NCBI GenBank assembly: GCA_002722055.1
Contig: PBKD01000004.1
Location: forward strand, 7,049-71,048
Direction of reading: 5' to 3'
DNA from: Rhodospirillaceae bacterium
Lineage (GTDB): Bacteria > Pseudomonadota > Alphaproteobacteria > SHVP01
DNA length: 64,000 nucleotides
The position numbers and the translations under genes were made by a program. Of this stretch, positions 6,919 to 48,551 are shown in pieces (within the stretch, counting starts at the first letter, position 1; each line of letters starts with the position of its first letter). The notes under the pieces are model-generated. The model searched no databases, was not told the DNA's origin, and was given only the letters and a program-made list of their open reading frames with translations.

Positions 6919-7725
6919 TTATTTTAAATGAAATTTTATCTGTTTAGCTGCATTCGACACCTGCTCTTTACTAGCTGTAGATGGACTTACACAAAGACTT
7001 TGATGAACTTCATATTTTTTTACAAATTTTTCTAAAATTTTTGGAATAATTAAAGATACTTGGATTTTAGCTAAATTCTCCTTGGTAGGGTATTTAAGCG
7101 CCGCATTTAATGCTAAATGATATGTCTCAGCGGACTTAACTAGCTCAACAGTTTTTTCATGTAGTTGTTTAGGTGAAGGAAGTCCATTAGGTCTTGCAAA
7201 CTCTTTATCCTTCTTAAACCATGGGAAGAAAAGATGTTGATCTCTCGCAAGGTGCCATAAGAAATTAAATTGGCTTCCATAATAATCAAATTTAATTTTT
7301 GGAGCATGACCACTTTCTAATAGTTGTTGAACTTTATCATCGTATATTTGAAGAAATTCTATATAAAATTTTTTTATTCTTGAAGGTTGTTGTATTGACA
7401 TTTCTATACCGCAATGCGCTCCAGTCATACTACCCCAAAGAAAAAAATTTTCTATGTTAAGCTGATCTAAAAAACGAAATATTGAGTTTGAAAAATAAGC
7501 AACATTAGGATTTTCTATATCAGGGCCCTCAGAGTCACCCATTCCCATAATATCAGGAGCAATTACAAAATAATCAGCACCTAATTTTTCAATTAAAGGT
7601 ATTAAAGAATGTGAAGATGTGGGACCTGGATGTAACATGACTAATGGTGGATTATTATTTCGATCACCAAAGTATCTGTAATGAATTTGACCTTCTTTAA
7701 TATTTATAAACCCTCTTTTAACCAT
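6919..7725 (-). CDS. alpha/beta-hydrolase fold protein
   Basis: Length about 270 aa, with 'LVMLHPGPTSSHS...' and '...FLWGSMTGAH' spaced as in the alpha/beta-hydrolase_1 family. No firm nucleophile motif was identified. Confidence 0.45.
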   Translation of the reverse strand: MVKRGFINIKEGQIHYRYFGDRNNNPPLVMLHPGPTSSHSLIPLIEKLGADYFVIAPDIMGMGDSEGPDIENPNVAYFSNSIFRFLDQLNIENFFLWGSMTGAHCGIEMSIQQPSRIKKFYIEFLQIYDDKVQQLLESGHAPKIKFDYYGSQFNFLWHLARDQHLFFPWFKKDKEFARPNGLPSPKQLHEKTVELVKSAETYHLALNAALKYPTKENLAKIQVSLIIPKILEKFVKKYEVHQSLCVSPSTASKEQVSNAAKQIKFHLK

Positions 7726-41088: not shown

Positions 41089-41949
41089 ATGGACAAAATA
41101 AACAAATATTTATTTATAGTAGTTAGCTTAATACTAGCTTCCTTCTTTTTTCTTGCTACTGGCATATATGCTCAGACCTATACAACTGTTATTGGTGGAG
41201 AAGGCCAGCCAGAAGTAGAAGTGAATCTTAATTCAATACATAATAAAACCAGATCATCTAATAAACTTAAATATCCTGGACAGAAAATTAGTAAAAAGAT
41301 AACGCTAGTTTGGCCCAAGAATATAAAAGAAATCTCAAATACTCCAAATAAAAAAATAATGTCTAAAGAAGTAATGCAAAATGCGCCAATCGAAAAAGTC
41401 TCTAGAGAAAAATTATATTCAAAGAATTTAAAAAAACTAGAGAGATCAACAGTTATTAGAGATAACAGAAGCAAAAGAAAAATTAAAATCATTCAAAAAG
41501 AACCATTGACTTCTGAAAAAATAATTAATCCCAAAAGGACAGAACTAAAATTACCTAATAAAATTAAGGAAGCTAAAACTTTCAATAGTCAAAGTGATAA
41601 AATTAGTAGACTGGATAATAAATCAAAATTATCAGAGTCAAACAATTTTCAGAGAATAATTTTTAAGCCTACCCAAACTAATCTGGACAAAAAATACCTA
41701 TCGGAATTATCAAAAATTGCATCAATGTCAATTAGACAAAATTCACGGATACAAATTAAAGCATACGCGAGTACTTCAGGAAATAGACCTACATACGCTC
41801 GGAGAGTCTCACTATCTAGAGCTTTAGCTATTAGAACTGAGCTTATACAATTCGGAGTTAACTCAACCAATATAGATGTTAGAGCATTAGGTGAAGTAAA
41901 TGATGGAAATCAAACTGACAGAGTTGATGTCTCAATAATGCCACAATAA
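41089..41949 (+). CDS. secreted or periplasmic OmpA-family protein with a Lys-rich linker (first gene of the stator-like module)
   Basis: N-terminal signal peptide ('...FFFLATGIYA|QT'), a low-complexity K-rich region of about 170 aa, and a C-terminal OmpA_C-like domain ('IKAYASTSGNRPTYARRVSLSRALAIRTELIQFGV'). Confidence 0.6.
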   Translation: MDKINKYLFIVVSLILASFFFLATGIYAQTYTTVIGGEGQPEVEVNLNSIHNKTRSSNKLKYPGQKISKKITLVWPKNIKEISNTPNKKIMSKEVMQNAPIEKVSREKLYSKNLKKLERSTVIRDNRSKRKIKIIQKEPLTSEKIINPKRTELKLPNKIKEAKTFNSQSDKISRLDNKSKLSESNNFQRIIFKPTQTNLDKKYLSELSKIASMSIRQNSRIQIKAYASTSGNRPTYARRVSLSRALAIRTELIQFGVNSTNIDVRALGEVNDGNQTDRVDVSIMPQ

Positions 41950-41982: not shown

Positions 41983-43122
41983 ATGTCAAAAACGCACAAC
42001 ATAATTATACGTATGTCAGGGTTTGTAATCATTGTTATTGCTATTGCAGTATTTTTGAATGATCCTCTTAAACAAGCTTTTCTTGCTAATCCTGCCATTA
42101 ATGGATTAATCATTGGAGTATTATTAGTTGGGATAATTTATGTCTTCAGACAAGTATTTTTATTAAGTCCAGAGATAAAATGGATAACTAGTTATAAGAA
42201 AAACTCATCTTTAATTTTTGAACAAAAACCTCCTAGAATGCTTGCCCCAATGGCTACTATGTTAGGAGATAGTAAACTTAAAAAAAACCTATCTACATTA
42301 TCTATGCGGACACTTCTTGATGGAATTTCTTCTAGACTTGATGAATCAAGAGAAATATCAAGGTATGTAACCGGTTTACTCATTTTTTTAGGATTGTTGG
42401 GAACATTTTGGGGCCTACTGGAAACCATAACATCTGTTACTAGCGCGATTTCAACTCTAAAAATAGACGGCGATGATTTTACTAGTCAATTTAACATGCT
42501 TAAGTCAGGCCTAGAAGCTCCTCTAAAAGGGATGGGAACAGCTTTCTCATCCTCTCTTTTTGGATTAACAGGTTCATTAATATTAGGTTTCCTGGACCTT
42601 CAAGCGGGACAAGCTCAAAATAGATTTTATAATGAACTTGAAGAATGGCTTTCAAAGAAAACACAGCTTACATCCTCAAATACAATAATTGATGGAGAAC
42701 AGTCTGTTCCAGTTTATGTTCAAGCTTTGCTTGAGCAAACAGTTGAAAATTTAGATAACCTTAGAAGAACTGTTGCTTCAGCTGAAACAAGCAGAAAAAA
42801 CACAGATAAGGTAATTTTATCACTACAAGAGGGCTTAGCAACACTTACAGAACAAACAAAAACAGAACAAGATTTAATGGTTAAGCTTGTAGAGAGCCAA
42901 ATAGATATGAAGCCAATTTTAGAGAGAATTTCTGAAACTGAGAATTCAATTTCACTTAAAAATCTTCAATTACATTTAAAAAATATAGAGAATTATAGTA
43001 GCCAGTTAGTCCAAAGCACCACAAAGGGGCAAGAGCAAATGCTTTATGAACTAAGAAGTGAATTCAAATTACTTGCTAAGACCTTAGCAGCTTCTATGAC
43101 AAATATTAGAAAGAAAGACTGA
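41983..43122 (+). CDS. MotA/TolQ/ExbB-family proton-channel protein with C-terminal coiled-coil tail
   Basis: A 2+2 TM topology with a cytoplasmic loop, plus the signature 'LGLLGTFWGLLETI' and 'GMGTAFSSSLFGLTGSLILGF' (compare tolQ 'GLFGTVWGIM' in this window). The tail of about 150 aa is helical and heptad-like. Confidence 0.65.
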   Translation: MSKTHNIIIRMSGFVIIVIAIAVFLNDPLKQAFLANPAINGLIIGVLLVGIIYVFRQVFLLSPEIKWITSYKKNSSLIFEQKPPRMLAPMATMLGDSKLKKNLSTLSMRTLLDGISSRLDESREISRYVTGLLIFLGLLGTFWGLLETITSVTSAISTLKIDGDDFTSQFNMLKSGLEAPLKGMGTAFSSSLFGLTGSLILGFLDLQAGQAQNRFYNELEEWLSKKTQLTSSNTIIDGEQSVPVYVQALLEQTVENLDNLRRTVASAETSRKNTDKVILSLQEGLATLTEQTKTEQDLMVKLVESQIDMKPILERISETENSISLKNLQLHLKNIENYSSQLVQSTTKGQEQMLYELRSEFKLLAKTLAASMTNIRKKD

Positions 43123-43130
43123 GGGATATA

Positions 43131-44405
43131 TTGTCAAGAAGAGGTAAAGGCACTATTTCTCAAAATTACTGGCCAGGTTTTGTTGATGCATTAGCTGCAT
43201 TATTACTAGTTATTGTATTTTTATTAGTAGTTTTTGTGCTTGCGCAGATTTTTCTTACTGAAGCACTATCTGGTAGGGACAAAGCTCTTGAAGAACTAAA
43301 CTCTGAAATTATTAATTTAACAGACTCACTCTCTTTAGAGAAAAAAAATAATGAAGAAATTAGATTAAAGGTAATCAATCTAGAAGAGAGCTTAGATAAA
43401 ACAATTATGGAGAAAAAAAACATCTTAGATGATCTTTCAAAGAAGGAAATAATAATTTCAACGAAAGAAAATTATATTGAAGAATTTAAAAAGGAAATTA
43501 AGAATCAAGATGATACTATAAAAGAAAATCTTATTAAATTTAAAAATTTAGAAGAAAAGAATTATAAACTATCCTTCGATTTAGAGAAATCAAAGAAAAA
43601 GATTTTTGAGTTAAACACTAGCACAAATGAGATAAGTCAAGCTCTTGAAGAAACAAAAGTCATCTTGACTAGACTAAAAGGGCGAGAAAAAGAATTAGAA
43701 AGTAAATTAATTTTAGAGAATAGTAGAGCTATTGAAAATAAGAATAAACTTGAAGTCGCAAAAAATGAATCAAATAAGAACACCAAAATAATAAATAATT
43801 TAAATGCACAAATAGCTGCTTTGAGAGCTCAGCTTGAAGCGCTTCAAAATGTTCTAGATAAAGCTGAAGAACAGGATAAAAAACAAAAAGTAATTATTTC
43901 AGATTTGGGTAATAAACTAAATAAGGCTTTAGCTCAAAAAGTGCAGGAACTTTCAAAATACCGCTCAGAATTTTTTGGTAAGCTTAGAGAAGTTTTAGGT
44001 GATAGAAAGGATATTTTAATTGTAGGAGATAGGTTTGTACTACAATCAGAAGTACTTTTCAGTTCTGGCTCAGCACAACTAGAGGATGAAGGAAAAGTTA
44101 AACTAATTGATATAGCAAAAACACTTCTAGAAATTATACCTTCTATTCCTTCTGAAATTAATTGGATACTTAGAGTGGATGGGCATACTGACTCGAGACC
44201 GATAAATAACAATAATTTTGCATCGAATTGGGAATTATCCAGTGCTAGATCATCAAATGTAGTAAAATTTTTAATCAAAGCAGGCATACCGCCCAAAAAC
44301 TTAGCCGCAACCGGCTTCGCAAGCTTCCAACCATTAGACTCAGGCAATGATGAGATATCATTTAGGAGGAATAGAAGAATAGAATTTAAATTTACTGAAA
44401 AATAA
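43131..44405 (+). CDS. MotB-like protein: N-terminal TM with conserved Asp, coiled coil of about 245 aa, C-terminal OmpA/MotB peptidoglycan-binding domain
   Basis: 'YWPGFVDALAALLLVIVFLLVVF' is a TM helix with the Asp, as in MotB/TolR/ExbD. The OmpA_C core is '...FVLQSEVLFSSGSAQL...ILRVDGHTDSRP...SNWELSSARSSNV'. TTG start with a GAGGG Shine-Dalgarno 5 nt upstream, 8 nt after the preceding gene. Confidence 0.65.
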   Translation: MSRRGKGTISQNYWPGFVDALAALLLVIVFLLVVFVLAQIFLTEALSGRDKALEELNSEIINLTDSLSLEKKNNEEIRLKVINLEESLDKTIMEKKNILDDLSKKEIIISTKENYIEEFKKEIKNQDDTIKENLIKFKNLEEKNYKLSFDLEKSKKKIFELNTSTNEISQALEETKVILTRLKGREKELESKLILENSRAIENKNKLEVAKNESNKNTKIINNLNAQIAALRAQLEALQNVLDKAEEQDKKQKVIISDLGNKLNKALAQKVQELSKYRSEFFGKLREVLGDRKDILIVGDRFVLQSEVLFSSGSAQLEDEGKVKLIDIAKTLLEIIPSIPSEINWILRVDGHTDSRPINNNNFASNWELSSARSSNVVKFLIKAGIPPKNLAATGFASFQPLDSGNDEISFRRNRRIEFKFTEK

Positions 44406-44433: not shown

Positions 44434-46251
44434 CTAATTGACCTCTCTTAAATTTATATTTTTAAATTGCATCTTTGACAACTTTGCATATAGACCACCC
44501 TCTTTCATAAGCTCTTCATGAGTGCCTTGAGAAATAATTAAACCTTTATCAAGAACTATAATTCTATCAGCTTTCTGAATTGTACTTAGTCTATGAGCTA
44601 TGATTATTGTAGTTCTATTTTTTAAAACTTTTTCCAGAGAAGCCTGGATAATAGACTCATTCTCTGTGTCGAGGGAACTTGTTGCTTCATCAAGTAATAA
44701 TAAGGAAGGGTTATGTAAAACTGATCTAGCAATCGCAATTCTTTGTTTTTGCCCACCTGATAATTTTACTCCTCTTTCTCCAAGGTTTGTATTATATCCA
44801 TCTGGCAATCTGTCTATAAATTCAGTTGCTGCTGCAACCTGTGCAGCTGAAATGATTTCTGCCTCAGAGGCATTTGGCTTGCTATACGATATATTTTTCC
44901 AGACATCGGTATCAAAAATTACCGGCTCTTGGGGGACGACTCCTATATTTGATCTTAATTCGCGAGGATCAACTCTTATAATATTTAAATTATCGAAACT
45001 AATATAACCGCTCTTAGGGTCGTAGAATCTTAATATTAATTGAAAAATAGTACTTTTACCAGAACCAGAAGGTCCAACAAGCGCAACTGTTTCGCCACTT
45101 TTTATCTCAAGAGAAAAATTGTTTAAAACATTGATTTCTGGTCTTGATGGATATGCAAATGTAACATTTTTGAATTCTAAATTGCCATGAGGATTAGTAT
45201 TAATTTTAAGAGGATTATTGGGAACCTTAATATTTGATTTGGCAGAAAGTAATTCTGAAATTCTTTCTGATGCTCCTGCTGCTTTTTGCAAGTCACCATA
45301 TACCTCTGATAAAGCAGCAGCCGAAGCAGCAGTCATTATTGCATATACAACAAAAGCACCTAAATCTCCTGCCGTCATATCTCCAACCATTACGTCTGAT
45401 GCCCCTATCCATAAAACTGAAACAACTGATCCAAATGCAACTGCAATAACTGCGAAGGTTAAAAGACCTCTAGCCATAATCTGTTTTTTTGCCTTACTAA
45501 AACTAGAGTTCACTCTACCTACAAATCTAGAAAACTCTATATCTTCTCTTACGTAAGACTGAACAGTTCTAATTTCTTTTAAGGTCTCATCAGCAACAGA
45601 ATTGACATTTGCTATTGCTGCTTGAGTTTCACGAGATAAACTTCTTACTCTTTTTCCAAATATGATAAGAGGTAAAATAATTAAGGGAACTGAAATCATT
45701 ATTAATAGAGATAATTTGAAACTAGTTATATTTAACATTATCAACCCTCCTATTAATAACATTAAATTTCTAAGAGCAATTGAAGCACCTGCTCCAACAA
45801 TTGATTGTATTAAAGTAGTATCAATAGATATTCTTGATAAAACTTCGGTAGTTTTATTTATTTCAAAATAACTTGGACTAAGTGCAATTACTTTTTTATA
45901 GATTGAAGCACGTAGGTCAGAGACTACCCTCTCTCCTAACCACATAACCAGATAGTACCTCATAAAGGTTGCAACTGAAATAATTAATACAACTAAATAT
46001 GCTAAAATTATGATTTCACTTAAGCCCCTAGATCCTTCTTCAAAACCTCTATCTATTAATAATTGAATTACTCTACCTATACCTAGTGTTCCAATTGCAG
46101 CACCAATTAGTGCTATAATTGCTAAGATCATAGTTTTCCAATAAGGCCTTGCAAAATTAAACAACAACTTTAAATGTTTTAATTCTTTGCTTTTTGCTCT
46201 TTCACTGGAAACATCGAGTGATCCCCCATAGGTGGATGATTTACGTGCCAA
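44434..46251 (-). CDS. ABC transporter, fused permease/ATP-binding exporter (ABCB/MsbA-like)
   Basis: Six-TM domain followed by Walker A 'GPSGSGKST', signature 'LSGGQKQR' and Walker B 'LLLDEATS'. Confidence 0.85.
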   Translation of the reverse strand: MARKSSTYGGSLDVSSERAKSKELKHLKLLFNFARPYWKTMILAIIALIGAAIGTLGIGRVIQLLIDRGFEEGSRGLSEIIILAYLVVLIISVATFMRYYLVMWLGERVVSDLRASIYKKVIALSPSYFEINKTTEVLSRISIDTTLIQSIVGAGASIALRNLMLLIGGLIMLNITSFKLSLLIMISVPLIILPLIIFGKRVRSLSRETQAAIANVNSVADETLKEIRTVQSYVREDIEFSRFVGRVNSSFSKAKKQIMARGLLTFAVIAVAFGSVVSVLWIGASDVMVGDMTAGDLGAFVVYAIMTAASAAALSEVYGDLQKAAGASERISELLSAKSNIKVPNNPLKINTNPHGNLEFKNVTFAYPSRPEINVLNNFSLEIKSGETVALVGPSGSGKSTIFQLILRFYDPKSGYISFDNLNIIRVDPRELRSNIGVVPQEPVIFDTDVWKNISYSKPNASEAEIISAAQVAAATEFIDRLPDGYNTNLGERGVKLSGGQKQRIAIARSVLHNPSLLLLDEATSSLDTENESIIQASLEKVLKNRTTIIIAHRLSTIQKADRIIVLDKGLIISQGTHEELMKEGGLYAKLSKMQFKNINLREVN

Positions 46252-47942: not shown

Positions 47943-48551
47943 ATGACACAACCCCTAATGCCAAAAGCCACTGCAGTTTGGTTGATAGACAATACATCTT
48001 TAACATTTGACCAGATTGGAACATTTTGTGGCCTTCACACTCTTGAAATTCAAGGGATAGCTGACGGCGAAGTTGCTTTGGGAATAGTTGGAAGAGACCC
48101 AATTGCTCAAGGTGAACTTACCCAAGAAGAAATAAACAGATGTGAAAATGATAAAGAACAAAAACTTGGTATTAATAAAACTGATATTTTCTTAGGTAGA
48201 AAGGATAACGAACAAAGATATACTCCCTTATCAAAAAGGCAAAATAGACCCGATGCAATAGCCTGGCTAATAAAATACCATCCAGAATTATCTGATGCTC
48301 AGGTCTGTAGACTAGTTGGCACTACAAAACCAACTGTTTCATCTGTTAGGGATAGAACTCATTGGAATATGGCAAATTTAAAATTAATGGACCCAGTCAC
48401 TCTTGGTATGTGTTCTCAAACTAACCTTGATACTGAAATAAAAAAAGCAGTAAAAAAACTTAAAAATAAACAAATCAGAGATGAAAAAGCAGCTAAATTA
48501 GCAAAAGAAACCTCTCAGAATGTATTAAATAATGACCCTGAAAAAATTTAA
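47943..48551 (+). CDS. DUF1013-family protein (conserved alphaproteobacterial, function unknown)
   Basis: 'MPKATAVWLIDNTSLTFDQIGTFCGLH...' matches the hallmark N-terminus of DUF1013 proteins as I recall it. Confidence 0.55.
   Translation: MTQPLMPKATAVWLIDNTSLTFDQIGTFCGLHTLEIQGIADGEVALGIVGRDPIAQGELTQEEINRCENDKEQKLGINKTDIFLGRKDNEQRYTPLSKRQNRPDAIAWLIKYHPELSDAQVCRLVGTTKPTVSSVRDRTHWNMANLKLMDPVTLGMCSQTNLDTEIKKAVKKLKNKQIRDEKAAKLAKETSQNVLNNDPEKI

Follow-up and report, generated by a model that had tools for sequence, protein, structure and literature searches.

A heptad-stepped coiled-coil rod on the predicted wall-anchoring subunit of a proposed 5:2 motor family of Alphaproteobacteria

Five kinds of 5:2 motor have been worked out, namely the flagellar stator, the Ton and Tol systems, the gliding/type IX secretion system (T9SS) and Zorya, and each of these has a different output element. 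In the GldLM motor of gliding and T9SS the B-type subunit, GldM or PorM, is a dimer whose long periplasmic extension is itself the working output. The B subunits of every solved 5:2 motor are dimeric with parallel transmembrane (TM) helices (PMC9389320, PMC11946911), and in activated MotB a parallel coiled coil follows right after the TM helix (PMC5647336). The spacer of flagellar B subunits consists of a plug and a flexible Gly/Pro-rich linker, and on linker length a survey of MotAB relatives recorded only that it differs among non-flagellar B subunits (PMC12505986). In Zorya the tail of EcZorA comprises about 500 residues and measures about 70 nm, and the peptidoglycan (PG)-binding domain of ZorB is joined to its TM helix without a linker (PMC11946911). 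Here we analyze a B-type subunit encoded at positions 43131-44405 on the forward strand of a 64,000-nucleotide stretch of Rhodospirillaceae bacterium DNA (positions 7,049 to 71,048 of contig PBKD01000004.1, assembly GCA_002722055.1; hereafter the window). It places a long and apparently rigid coil between its TM helix and its predicted PG-binding domain, and the members of its family differ in the length of this coil by whole heptads. Such a rod, lying in the periplasm on the wall-anchoring B subunit, is unlike anything in the characterised 5:2 motors and would be a new arrangement.

The open reading frame (ORF) listing gives the B gene 424 codons from a TTG start. Reading the sequence directly, a GAGGG ribosome-binding site (43121-43125, forward strand, as are the other features of this gene) overlaps the stop codon of the preceding A gene and is separated by a 5-nt spacer from the TTG, and in an alignment of the homologues (A1) these start at the residue equivalent to the TTG-encoded one. 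Judging from its profile match the protein is a bona fide member of NCBIfam NF006543, or CDD PRK09039, a family that is catalogued and functionally blank: against the model (PRK09039.1-2, "peptidoglycan-binding protein") it scores 415 bits, E 4e-124, relative to a cut-off of 305. Like the rest of this family it has a WPGFVD-TM motif, a conserved helix preceding the terminal domain and an OmpA domain; the model has about 350 positions, which the window protein matches in two stretches, with extra heptads as compared to the shortest members. At the N-terminus hydropathy and composition delimit a basic cytoplasmic tail of residues 1-14 (MSRRGKG...; 43131-43172). It is followed by the WPGFVD motif and a single TM helix with Asp19 in residues 15-41 (43173-43253), recognized by hydropathy, conservation and the PADLOC ZorB1 profile and lying within the lone hydrophobic segment of the protein (residues 12-49). 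At least 90% of alignment A1 retains Asp19, which corresponds to the Asp that carries protons in MotB and ZorB. Residues 45-250 (43263-43880) form the canonical heptad coil, within which residues 201-208 (43731-43754) are a polar N/K-rich stretch. Beyond the coil a highly conserved amphipathic helix of residues 251-289 (43881-43997; ..DLGNKLNKALAQKVQELSKYRSEFFGKLREVLG), with invariant columns from L259 to L285, leads into a MotB-type, OmpA-like PG-binding domain made up of residues 300-424 (44028-44405, including the stop codon).

Several lines of evidence identify the two ends of the protein. Pfam OmpA (PF00691) matches residues 309-415 with 52.3 bits against a cut-off of 27.2, and the best Foldseek hits of the C-terminal domain are the periplasmic domains of MotS, MotB and PomB (E 6e-11 to 1e-8, target TM-score ~0.7). 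The GHTD, LSxxRA and NRR motifs are intact, and the residues for the PG peptide stem, namely D350-G-H-T-D354, R373 and N414-R-R416, are invariant in alignment A1; on these grounds we predict a PG-binding domain of the MotB type. Across 114 non-redundant representatives of the family the TM Asp is present in all, as is LSxxRA, with GHTD in 110 and NRR in 112. PADLOC recognizes ZorB1 in residues 3-82 and ZorB3 in residues 258-419 (E 1e-24), the second match beginning just inside the conserved 251-289 helix, which corresponds to helix alpha-1 of the ZorB and MotB periplasmic domains. In sequence terms the protein resembles a ZorB/MotB in which about 175 extra residues interrupt the helix from the TM segment to the domain. 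The N-terminal tails of the 114 members carry on average 3.3 K+R as against 0.9 D+E, and this basic tail and the location of the TM Asp at the MotB position therefore point to an N-in topology with the rod in the periplasm. Taken together, an architecture of TM-Asp, coiled-coil rod and predicted PG-binding domain can be assigned to this protein with high confidence, and the identification of a MotB-like protein in an earlier note on this stretch, made from the letters alone, is borne out by the TM Asp, the OmpA domain and an adjacent A gene.

The spacer itself has the hallmarks of a coiled coil. Pro is absent from residue 16 to residue 336, so that the whole helix of residues 42-289 is proline-free, and the 246-residue helical spacer contains only 5 Gly; the helix is composed of 16% K, 14% E, 14% L, 10% N and 9% I. 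Within residues 45-290 the strongest hydrophobic period is exactly 3.50 residues (z=11.3, a value reached by 0 of 2000 shuffles), and the same test found no 3.50-residue signal in the OmpA domain. Upon assignment of registers in the rods of the family, position a is hydrophobic in 70% and position d in 58% of cases, with the others at no more than 13%, and positions e and g are the most charged. In the last approximately 80 helical residues (209-289), which are the best-conserved part of the protein, the period shifts to 3.6 rather than 3.5 (z=9.2). The spacer is accordingly divided into about 205 residues of canonical heptad coil (residues 45-250; period 3.50, z 9-11 and a constant heptad frame) and about 40 residues of conserved amphipathic helix. 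The coherent 3.5 repeat and the a/d core mark the former as a predicted canonical left-handed coiled coil. An AlphaFold2 (AF2) model of the single chain (36-sequence alignment; mean predicted local distance difference test score, pLDDT, of 80) shows a continuous helix of 186 residues (15-200), a second of 81 residues (209-289) and then the OmpA fold, with pLDDT falling below 50 in the break at residues 201-208. This break coincides with a lineage-specific deletion and the N/K-rich run, and the heptad frame is identical on either side of it. At the standard rise of a coiled coil, 0.1485 nm per residue, the coil would measure about 30 nm and the total helix about 36 nm when straight. The earlier proposal that the spacer is a coiled coil thus stands, and so does its estimate of some 245 residues and 35 nm if it is applied to the total helix; the canonical coil is slightly shorter.

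The long heptad rod is a trait of the whole large PRK09039 family and not a peculiarity of the window gene. As a measure of rod length we took the distance between two invariant motifs, WPGFVD in the TM helix and VGDRF where the PG domain starts, in 115 usable representatives that are mutually no more than 50% identical, 35 of the original 150 having been dropped as fragments or on account of diverged motifs. This distance ranges from 201 to 562 residues, i.e. 2.8-fold, which for the rods themselves amounts to about 160 to about 520 residues or 24-77 nm. Yet 86 of the 115 values (75%) fall in a single class modulo 7 (Bonferroni p 2e-47), as did 85% of the 178 sequences in a first set. A further 19 (17%) fall in the +4 class, a shift of the size of a coiled-coil "stutter". 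The moduli 5, 6, 8, 9, 10 and 11 gave no enrichment in the 115 representatives. The window protein, with a motif distance of 285, belongs to the main class and lies below the family median of 341. Pairwise alignments of close relatives show how the lengths come about, in that their gap blocks measure 7 (n=1326), 14 (636), 21 (599) and 28 (141) residues, and in 456 pairs the whole length difference is a single gap block. One pair of proteins that are 75-81% identical differs by one heptad, and the window protein differs by 3-7 heptads from relatives with which it shares 58-77% identity. The length-variable region, taken family-wide, maps to about residues 113-215 of the window protein in alignment A1. 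In the 114 rods heptad periodicity exceeds z of 4 in 98% (median 17) and the best period is exactly 3.50 in 102; Pro accounts for just 8 of 33,801 residues, 108 of the rods having none, and Gly is evenly spread except for conserved positions at both ends. As for recent heptad duplication, a search for DNA tandem repeats within the window B gene found none of note.

Length that varies in strict heptad steps argues against a "ruler" for a fixed distance. It rather indicates that selection maintains an unbroken coil, and hence the rotational phase between TM axle and wall anchor, rather than length as such. The charge pattern of the rods suggests how two chains would be arranged within such a coil. 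Pairing of charges between position g of one strand and e' of the other is the classic inter-strand signature of parallel dimers. In the g to e (i+5) pairs of the rods opposite charges are enriched by +0.45 log2 and like charges changed by -1.19 log2, a 2.3-fold depletion, and this is the only one of the i to i+5 classes that combines opposite-charge enrichment with like-charge depletion. We therefore favour a parallel, in-register, two-stranded coiled coil as the predicted state of the B rod, in keeping with the dimeric B subunits of the solved motors.

In the resulting model of an A5B2 motor the wall would hold the B dimer in place and the A pentamer, which carries a short cytoplasmic coiled-coil tail like that of ZorA, would rotate about this dimer. 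From its TM helix B would continue straight into a proline-free rod ending in the PG-binding domain, this rod having arisen by whole-heptad insertion that lengthened the short TM-to-domain helix of ZorB/MotB, and it would serve as a stiff, torque-bearing shaft that links the motor with a point on the wall tens of nanometres distant. In Escherichia coli the gap between inner membrane (IM) and PG is about 9 nm (PMC11946911) and the distance from IM to outer membrane (OM) is 30-32 nm (PMC8824477). A straight window rod exceeds the first and equals or exceeds the second, which upholds the earlier statement that it is longer than a periplasm is wide. No single perpendicular distance could be bridged by all the rods of a set that runs from 24 to 77 nm and in which close relatives lie several heptads apart. 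A rod that both exceeds the IM-PG gap and varies this widely would most readily be slanted or run along the sacculus on its inner side, a placement that we put forward tentatively and with rather less assurance than the rest of the model. As a combined statement, that the B protein is the wall-anchoring subunit of a non-flagellar, non-defence, ion-driven 5:2 motor with a rigid rod that may lie obliquely, we consider the model probable. The physiological role is presumably an envelope function.

Immediately upstream of the B gene, with a gap of 8 nt, lies the A gene (41983-43122, forward strand), which encodes a 379-aa four-TM subunit of the MotA/ExbB/TolQ/ZorA superfamily as judged from PADLOC, AF2 and Foldseek. 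PADLOC assigns it to ZorA1 with E 1.8e-16. The AF2 model (pLDDT 68) has four membrane helices, a short TM2-TM3 loop of about 60 residues and tail helices at residues 244-318 and 324-378, and all 50 of the Foldseek matches listed are 5:2 motor A subunits (ZorA 8vvn_D, ExbB, TolQ, PomA, MotA). A search of its profile against PDB sequences returned spurious coiled-coil matches only. The A homologues are nearly constant in length (375-407 aa) while the B rod varies 2.8-fold. Their cytoplasmic tail of about 170 aa (residues 207-379) is conserved, with an SVPxYVQALLEQT motif as well as H331, N334, R358, E360 and K362; residues 244-318 of it form a heptad coil (period 3.5, z=6.1) and residues 324-378 have a period of 3.6. 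This conservation at constant length suggests a specific cytoplasmic binding partner. The apparent operon is headed by a third gene (41089-41949, forward strand) for an accessory secreted protein of 286 aa. It lacks Cys and begins with a signal-peptide-like N-terminus (hydrophobic residues 3-29); a low-complexity spacer of about 155 aa, rich in K, S and N, then leads to an OmpA-like domain at the C-terminal end (residues 192-276, Pfam E 2e-11), which is predicted to bind PG. The protein could be a periplasmic partner of the motor. The constant-length A tail and this co-encoded OmpA-domain protein are the obvious places to look for partners.

We obtained contextual information from 80 related loci. 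In 78 of them the B gene is directly preceded by the A gene, and in 51 the A gene is directly preceded by the accessory gene. The Kordiimonas loci, for instance, lack the accessory gene and have suhB right next to the A gene, and we found no relation of rod length to its presence (Mann-Whitney p=1.0). Further upstream are efp and suhB-like genes (54-56 of 80), and downstream are rpmE (35 of 80) and an MsbA-related ABC transporter (27 of 80); correspondingly, the neighbours recognized by NCBIfam in the window are fba, thiE, efp, an inositol-monophosphatase-family gene, MsbA_rel and rpmE. The A-B locus is thus a housekeeping one (efp-suhB ... rpmE), neither a flagellar cluster nor a defence island. 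The MsbA-related ABC exporter of the window (44434-46251, reverse strand; TIGR02204, 785 bits against a cut-off of 780) is a transporter of the envelope-lipid type that converges on the B gene, with 28 nt between the two stop codons, and its position beside the B gene is possibly just conserved synteny. Elsewhere in the window an ORF for 202 aa (47943-48551, forward strand) has no NCBIfam match at E<=1e-5. The window has about 31% G+C, and a sign change in GC skew near 34 kb tracks a switch in gene orientation. Scans for promoters and terminators yielded 32 sites against 30.1 expected, i.e. the level of shuffled controls, and 8 sites against 3.1 expected, none of the latter bounding the operon.

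The most serious competitor to a straight rod is a hairpin or four-helix-bundle stalk in which each B chain makes a turn, for instance at residues 201-208, and doubles back, so that it projects about half as far. The PG domain would then lie near the IM or at wall height (~11 nm), with a coiled-coil spike beyond. This would remove the problem of a rod that is "too long", and it could draw on the low-confidence AF2 break between helices of 186 and 81 residues, on two deletions relative to the closest homologue that are roughly symmetric about mid-rod, and on conserved N- and C-terminal rod blocks of similar length. Yet the break coincides with a lineage-specific deletion and a polar N/K run across which the heptad frame is unchanged, and the 114 rods have no conserved Gly/Pro or loop position. 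Insertions and deletions in chemoreceptor hairpins reportedly occur in symmetric pairs (Alexander and Zhulin, 2007). In the present family, by contrast, single unpaired 7-residue indels separate close relatives (in the 456 pairs above), and odd and even heptad counts are both common (51 vs 34). Furthermore, mutual information with average product correction (MI-APC) between the conserved N- and C-terminal rod blocks gave no antidiagonal signal in 199 sequences (max z 2.0, a weak negative), the top covarying rod pairs being intra-helical with spacings of 1, 3, 4 and 7, and the g to e charge signature is that of parallel strands. A fold or hairpin, which the earlier note had listed among the ways of accommodating the rod, is thus by no means obligatory, and we regard it as unlikely. 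Somewhat less likely still is a perpendicular, TolA-like trans-envelope tether built onto B, in which the rod would cross the PG mesh and present its head at the outer face of the wall or to an OM-proximal partner, possibly the co-encoded 286-aa OmpA-domain protein. The gross plan of the window protein, namely an N-terminal TM helix, a helix of about 250 residues and a head within 424 aa, does seem to resemble that of TolA, the window rod of 30-36 nm is close to the IM-OM distance of E. coli (30-32 nm, PMC8824477), and a secreted OmpA-domain protein is co-encoded in 51 of the 80 loci. Against it, rods of about 24-77 nm that differ by 3-7 heptads at 58-77% identity are incompatible with one fixed distance, their length is unrelated to the accessory gene, and the head retains all the PG-binding motifs. 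An inverted topology with a cytoplasmic coil, or an artefact of gene fusion, frameshift or assembly, both of which the earlier note had entertained, has only the puzzle of rod length to commend it. The basic N-tail and the MotB-like placement of the Asp, close to where the TM helix meets the cytoplasm, contradict the former, as do the PG-binding motifs kept in the OmpA domain; the latter is countered by an identical protein on 14 contigs and by the presence of the architecture in at least 599 genomes. We accord these two a negligible chance.

The straight, wall-anchored rod remains our preferred reading, and the question then is to which kind of motor it belongs. The window protein shares with MotB, PomB and MotS an N-in single TM helix with an essential Asp and a C-terminal OmpA-like domain of the same fold, and flagellar B genes likewise directly follow the A gene. 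The matches to the MotD, MotS and MotB equivalog models reach only 96 vs 283, 92 vs 264 and 62 vs 301 bits, all far under the cut-offs, and the flagellar models were accordingly rejected. A MotAB paralogue serving as a flagellar stator would agree with the source annotations "chemotaxis protein MotB" and "flagellar motor protein MotA", with the closest folds of the PG domain (MotS, MotB, PomB) and with these weak MotD and MotS matches. It is nonetheless highly improbable, given that the A subunit matches no NCBIfam MotA model and has a TM2-TM3 loop of about 60 residues, that the locus is efp-suhB ... rpmE in most genomes, and that in place of the plug and Gly/Pro-rich flexible linker (PMC12505986) there is a rigid, proline-free helix of about 250 residues. 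An anti-phage system of the Zorya type, whether degenerate or novel, is a shade more improbable. The best library matches of both subunits do include the PADLOC ZorA and ZorB models, those for the A subunit and both ends of B being the best PADLOC profiles; the A tail is likewise a cytoplasmic coiled coil, and in ZorB too the TM helix continues as a helix into the PG-binding domain. On the other hand the window contains no ZorC, D, E, F or G-like genes, its neighbours belonging to core metabolism and translation, and a synteny kept in at least 78 of 80 genomes is not what one usually sees in defence islands. The NCBIfam ZorA model (antiphage_ZorA_2) scores 19 bits against a cut-off of 100, ZorA has three TM helices versus four in the window A subunit, and the A tail is constant at about 170 aa compared to the approximately 500 residues and 70 nm of EcZorA (PMC11946911). 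With the tail, the lack of adjoining effector genes and the score all pointing the same way, Zorya was discarded as an assignment. What the earlier note had perceived, a long coil on the B-type partner instead of on A, holds for the family as a whole: the long coil of Zorya is on ZorA, and here a rod of 24-77 nm is on B, across the membrane from a short A tail.

Comparison with other envelope rods yields further distinctions. TolA is a protein of about 421 aa with a silhouette similar to that of the window protein. Both TolA and TonB have an N-terminal TM anchor, a long periplasmic helical domain, a C-terminal globular head and an association with a 5:2 motor, but they are third components docking on the A/B motor and their heads bind Pal/TolB or the TonB box, whereas the rod in question is the B subunit itself, with a TM Asp, and its head is an OmpA-like PG binder. 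TolA was therefore set aside on the basis of the B-type TM Asp and the OmpA C-terminus, and no TolA or TonB model is among the best 25 of the 40 NCBIfam matches. The extension of GldM is made of globular domains without a PG-binding domain and is thought to rotate, unlike the present rod, whose far end would be fixed to the wall. Lpp, the OmpA-like protein of Capnocytophaga gingivalis (PDB 5wtl, which is among the Foldseek structural matches of the window protein) and the OmpM/Omp-alpha stalks likewise combine a coiled coil with a PG-binding module. These are OM-anchored and set the OM-PG distance, as opposed to the IM-anchored motor subunit with its unconserved length. Lpp+21 represents an engineered heptad-wise change in length (PMC8824477).

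To gauge the spread of the family we ran an exhaustive profile search of the representatives of 50%-identity clusters, which recovered 1,580 clusters at E<=1e-30, and in a word-index search 7,996 of the 8,000 candidate homologues that were scored had E<=1e-5. A scan of one genome per species found the B architecture in at least 599 genomes. The best 80 of these matches are almost all from Alphaproteobacteria, with a few metagenome-assembled genomes (MAGs) labelled otherwise, and include Thalassospira, Azospirillum, Kiloniella, Sneathiella, Kordiimonas, Dongia, Roseospirillum, Magnetovibrio and members of the Acetobacteraceae. The 14 contigs with the identical B protein include a 1.19-Mb contig of a MAG labelled Rhodospirillaceae bacterium (the protein's locus tag being CMM49_02550), contrary to an earlier assumption that the DNA is from SAR11. 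A look-up of the clusters of short- and long-rod representatives returned MAG and metagenome names only and no model organisms. Public records routinely call the family members "chemotaxis protein MotB" (JGI) and "flagellar motor protein MotA" (NCBI); as the equivalog models failed and the locus is non-flagellar, these flagellar labels on the A and B families are likely a systematic misannotation. A literature search of incomplete coverage found no description of the PRK09039 family, its function or the heptad quantisation, the mentions of PRK09039 being irrelevant. Some homologues display larger rearrangements of the rod. In P0032 and P0049, a 657-aa protein, there is a large internal tandem duplication (alignment A1, columns ~60-560) that repeats even the membrane-proximal "FLGEALSGRDAALQKLENQVSELADLLALERKG..." motif, which implies that rods can grow by segmental duplication besides single heptads. 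In P0010 (462 aa) an apparent second, partial pre-domain helix and PG-domain start ("...AQRVQELSRYRSDFFGKLREILGNRPDVRIVGDRFVLQSELFFDTGKAEL...") lies inside the rod (columns ~500-700). The representatives P0348 (926 aa) and P0387 (953 aa) are far longer, with PG-domain matches that end at residues 661 and 732, and therefore have extra C-terminal sequence.

Certain points weigh against the picture of a motor with a straight parallel rod. The whole case is computational, and homology is the ground for assuming an A5B2 stoichiometry and rotation driven by ions. The Pfam MotA_ExbB score of the A subunit is 19.4 bits, below the cut-off of 22.9, one homologue passing it, and its Foldseek matches are weak (E ~3e-3, TM-score <=0.39). 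Heptad-sized indels are geometrically tolerable in a hairpin too, and the modelled break at residues 201-208 could be a real hinge; the only AF2 model of the B protein is that of a monomer, read by confidence and secondary structure and not by coordinates. The modulo-7 and charge-pair statistics lack phylogenetic correction, although the representatives are no more than 50% identical. Finally, the periplasm dimensions used are those of E. coli and may not hold for these organisms.

The A and B genes define a large family with conserved synteny and no assigned function, with 1,580 clusters when grouped at 50% identity and matches in at least 599 genomes, one per species and mostly of Alphaproteobacteria, and the present analysis corrects the routine annotation of both genes as flagellar MotA/MotB. 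The heptad quantisation of their rods over a 2.8-fold range is a natural experiment in which an unbroken coil, or its angular register, matters and distance does not, and it thereby constrains models of how B subunits bear torque. A bolder reading, which we offer as speculative and rather unlikely, is that the Alphaproteobacteria possess a further ion-driven envelope machine besides the flagellar stator, Tol and Ton, with the B dimer as a working shaft of 24-77 nm that is selected for rotational phase, not length, and transmits or stores torque from the IM motor to a distant point of the sacculus or a partner in the outer envelope. If this were true, the transmission of torque by a B shaft would be a mechanical principle unseen in the characterised 5:2 motors.

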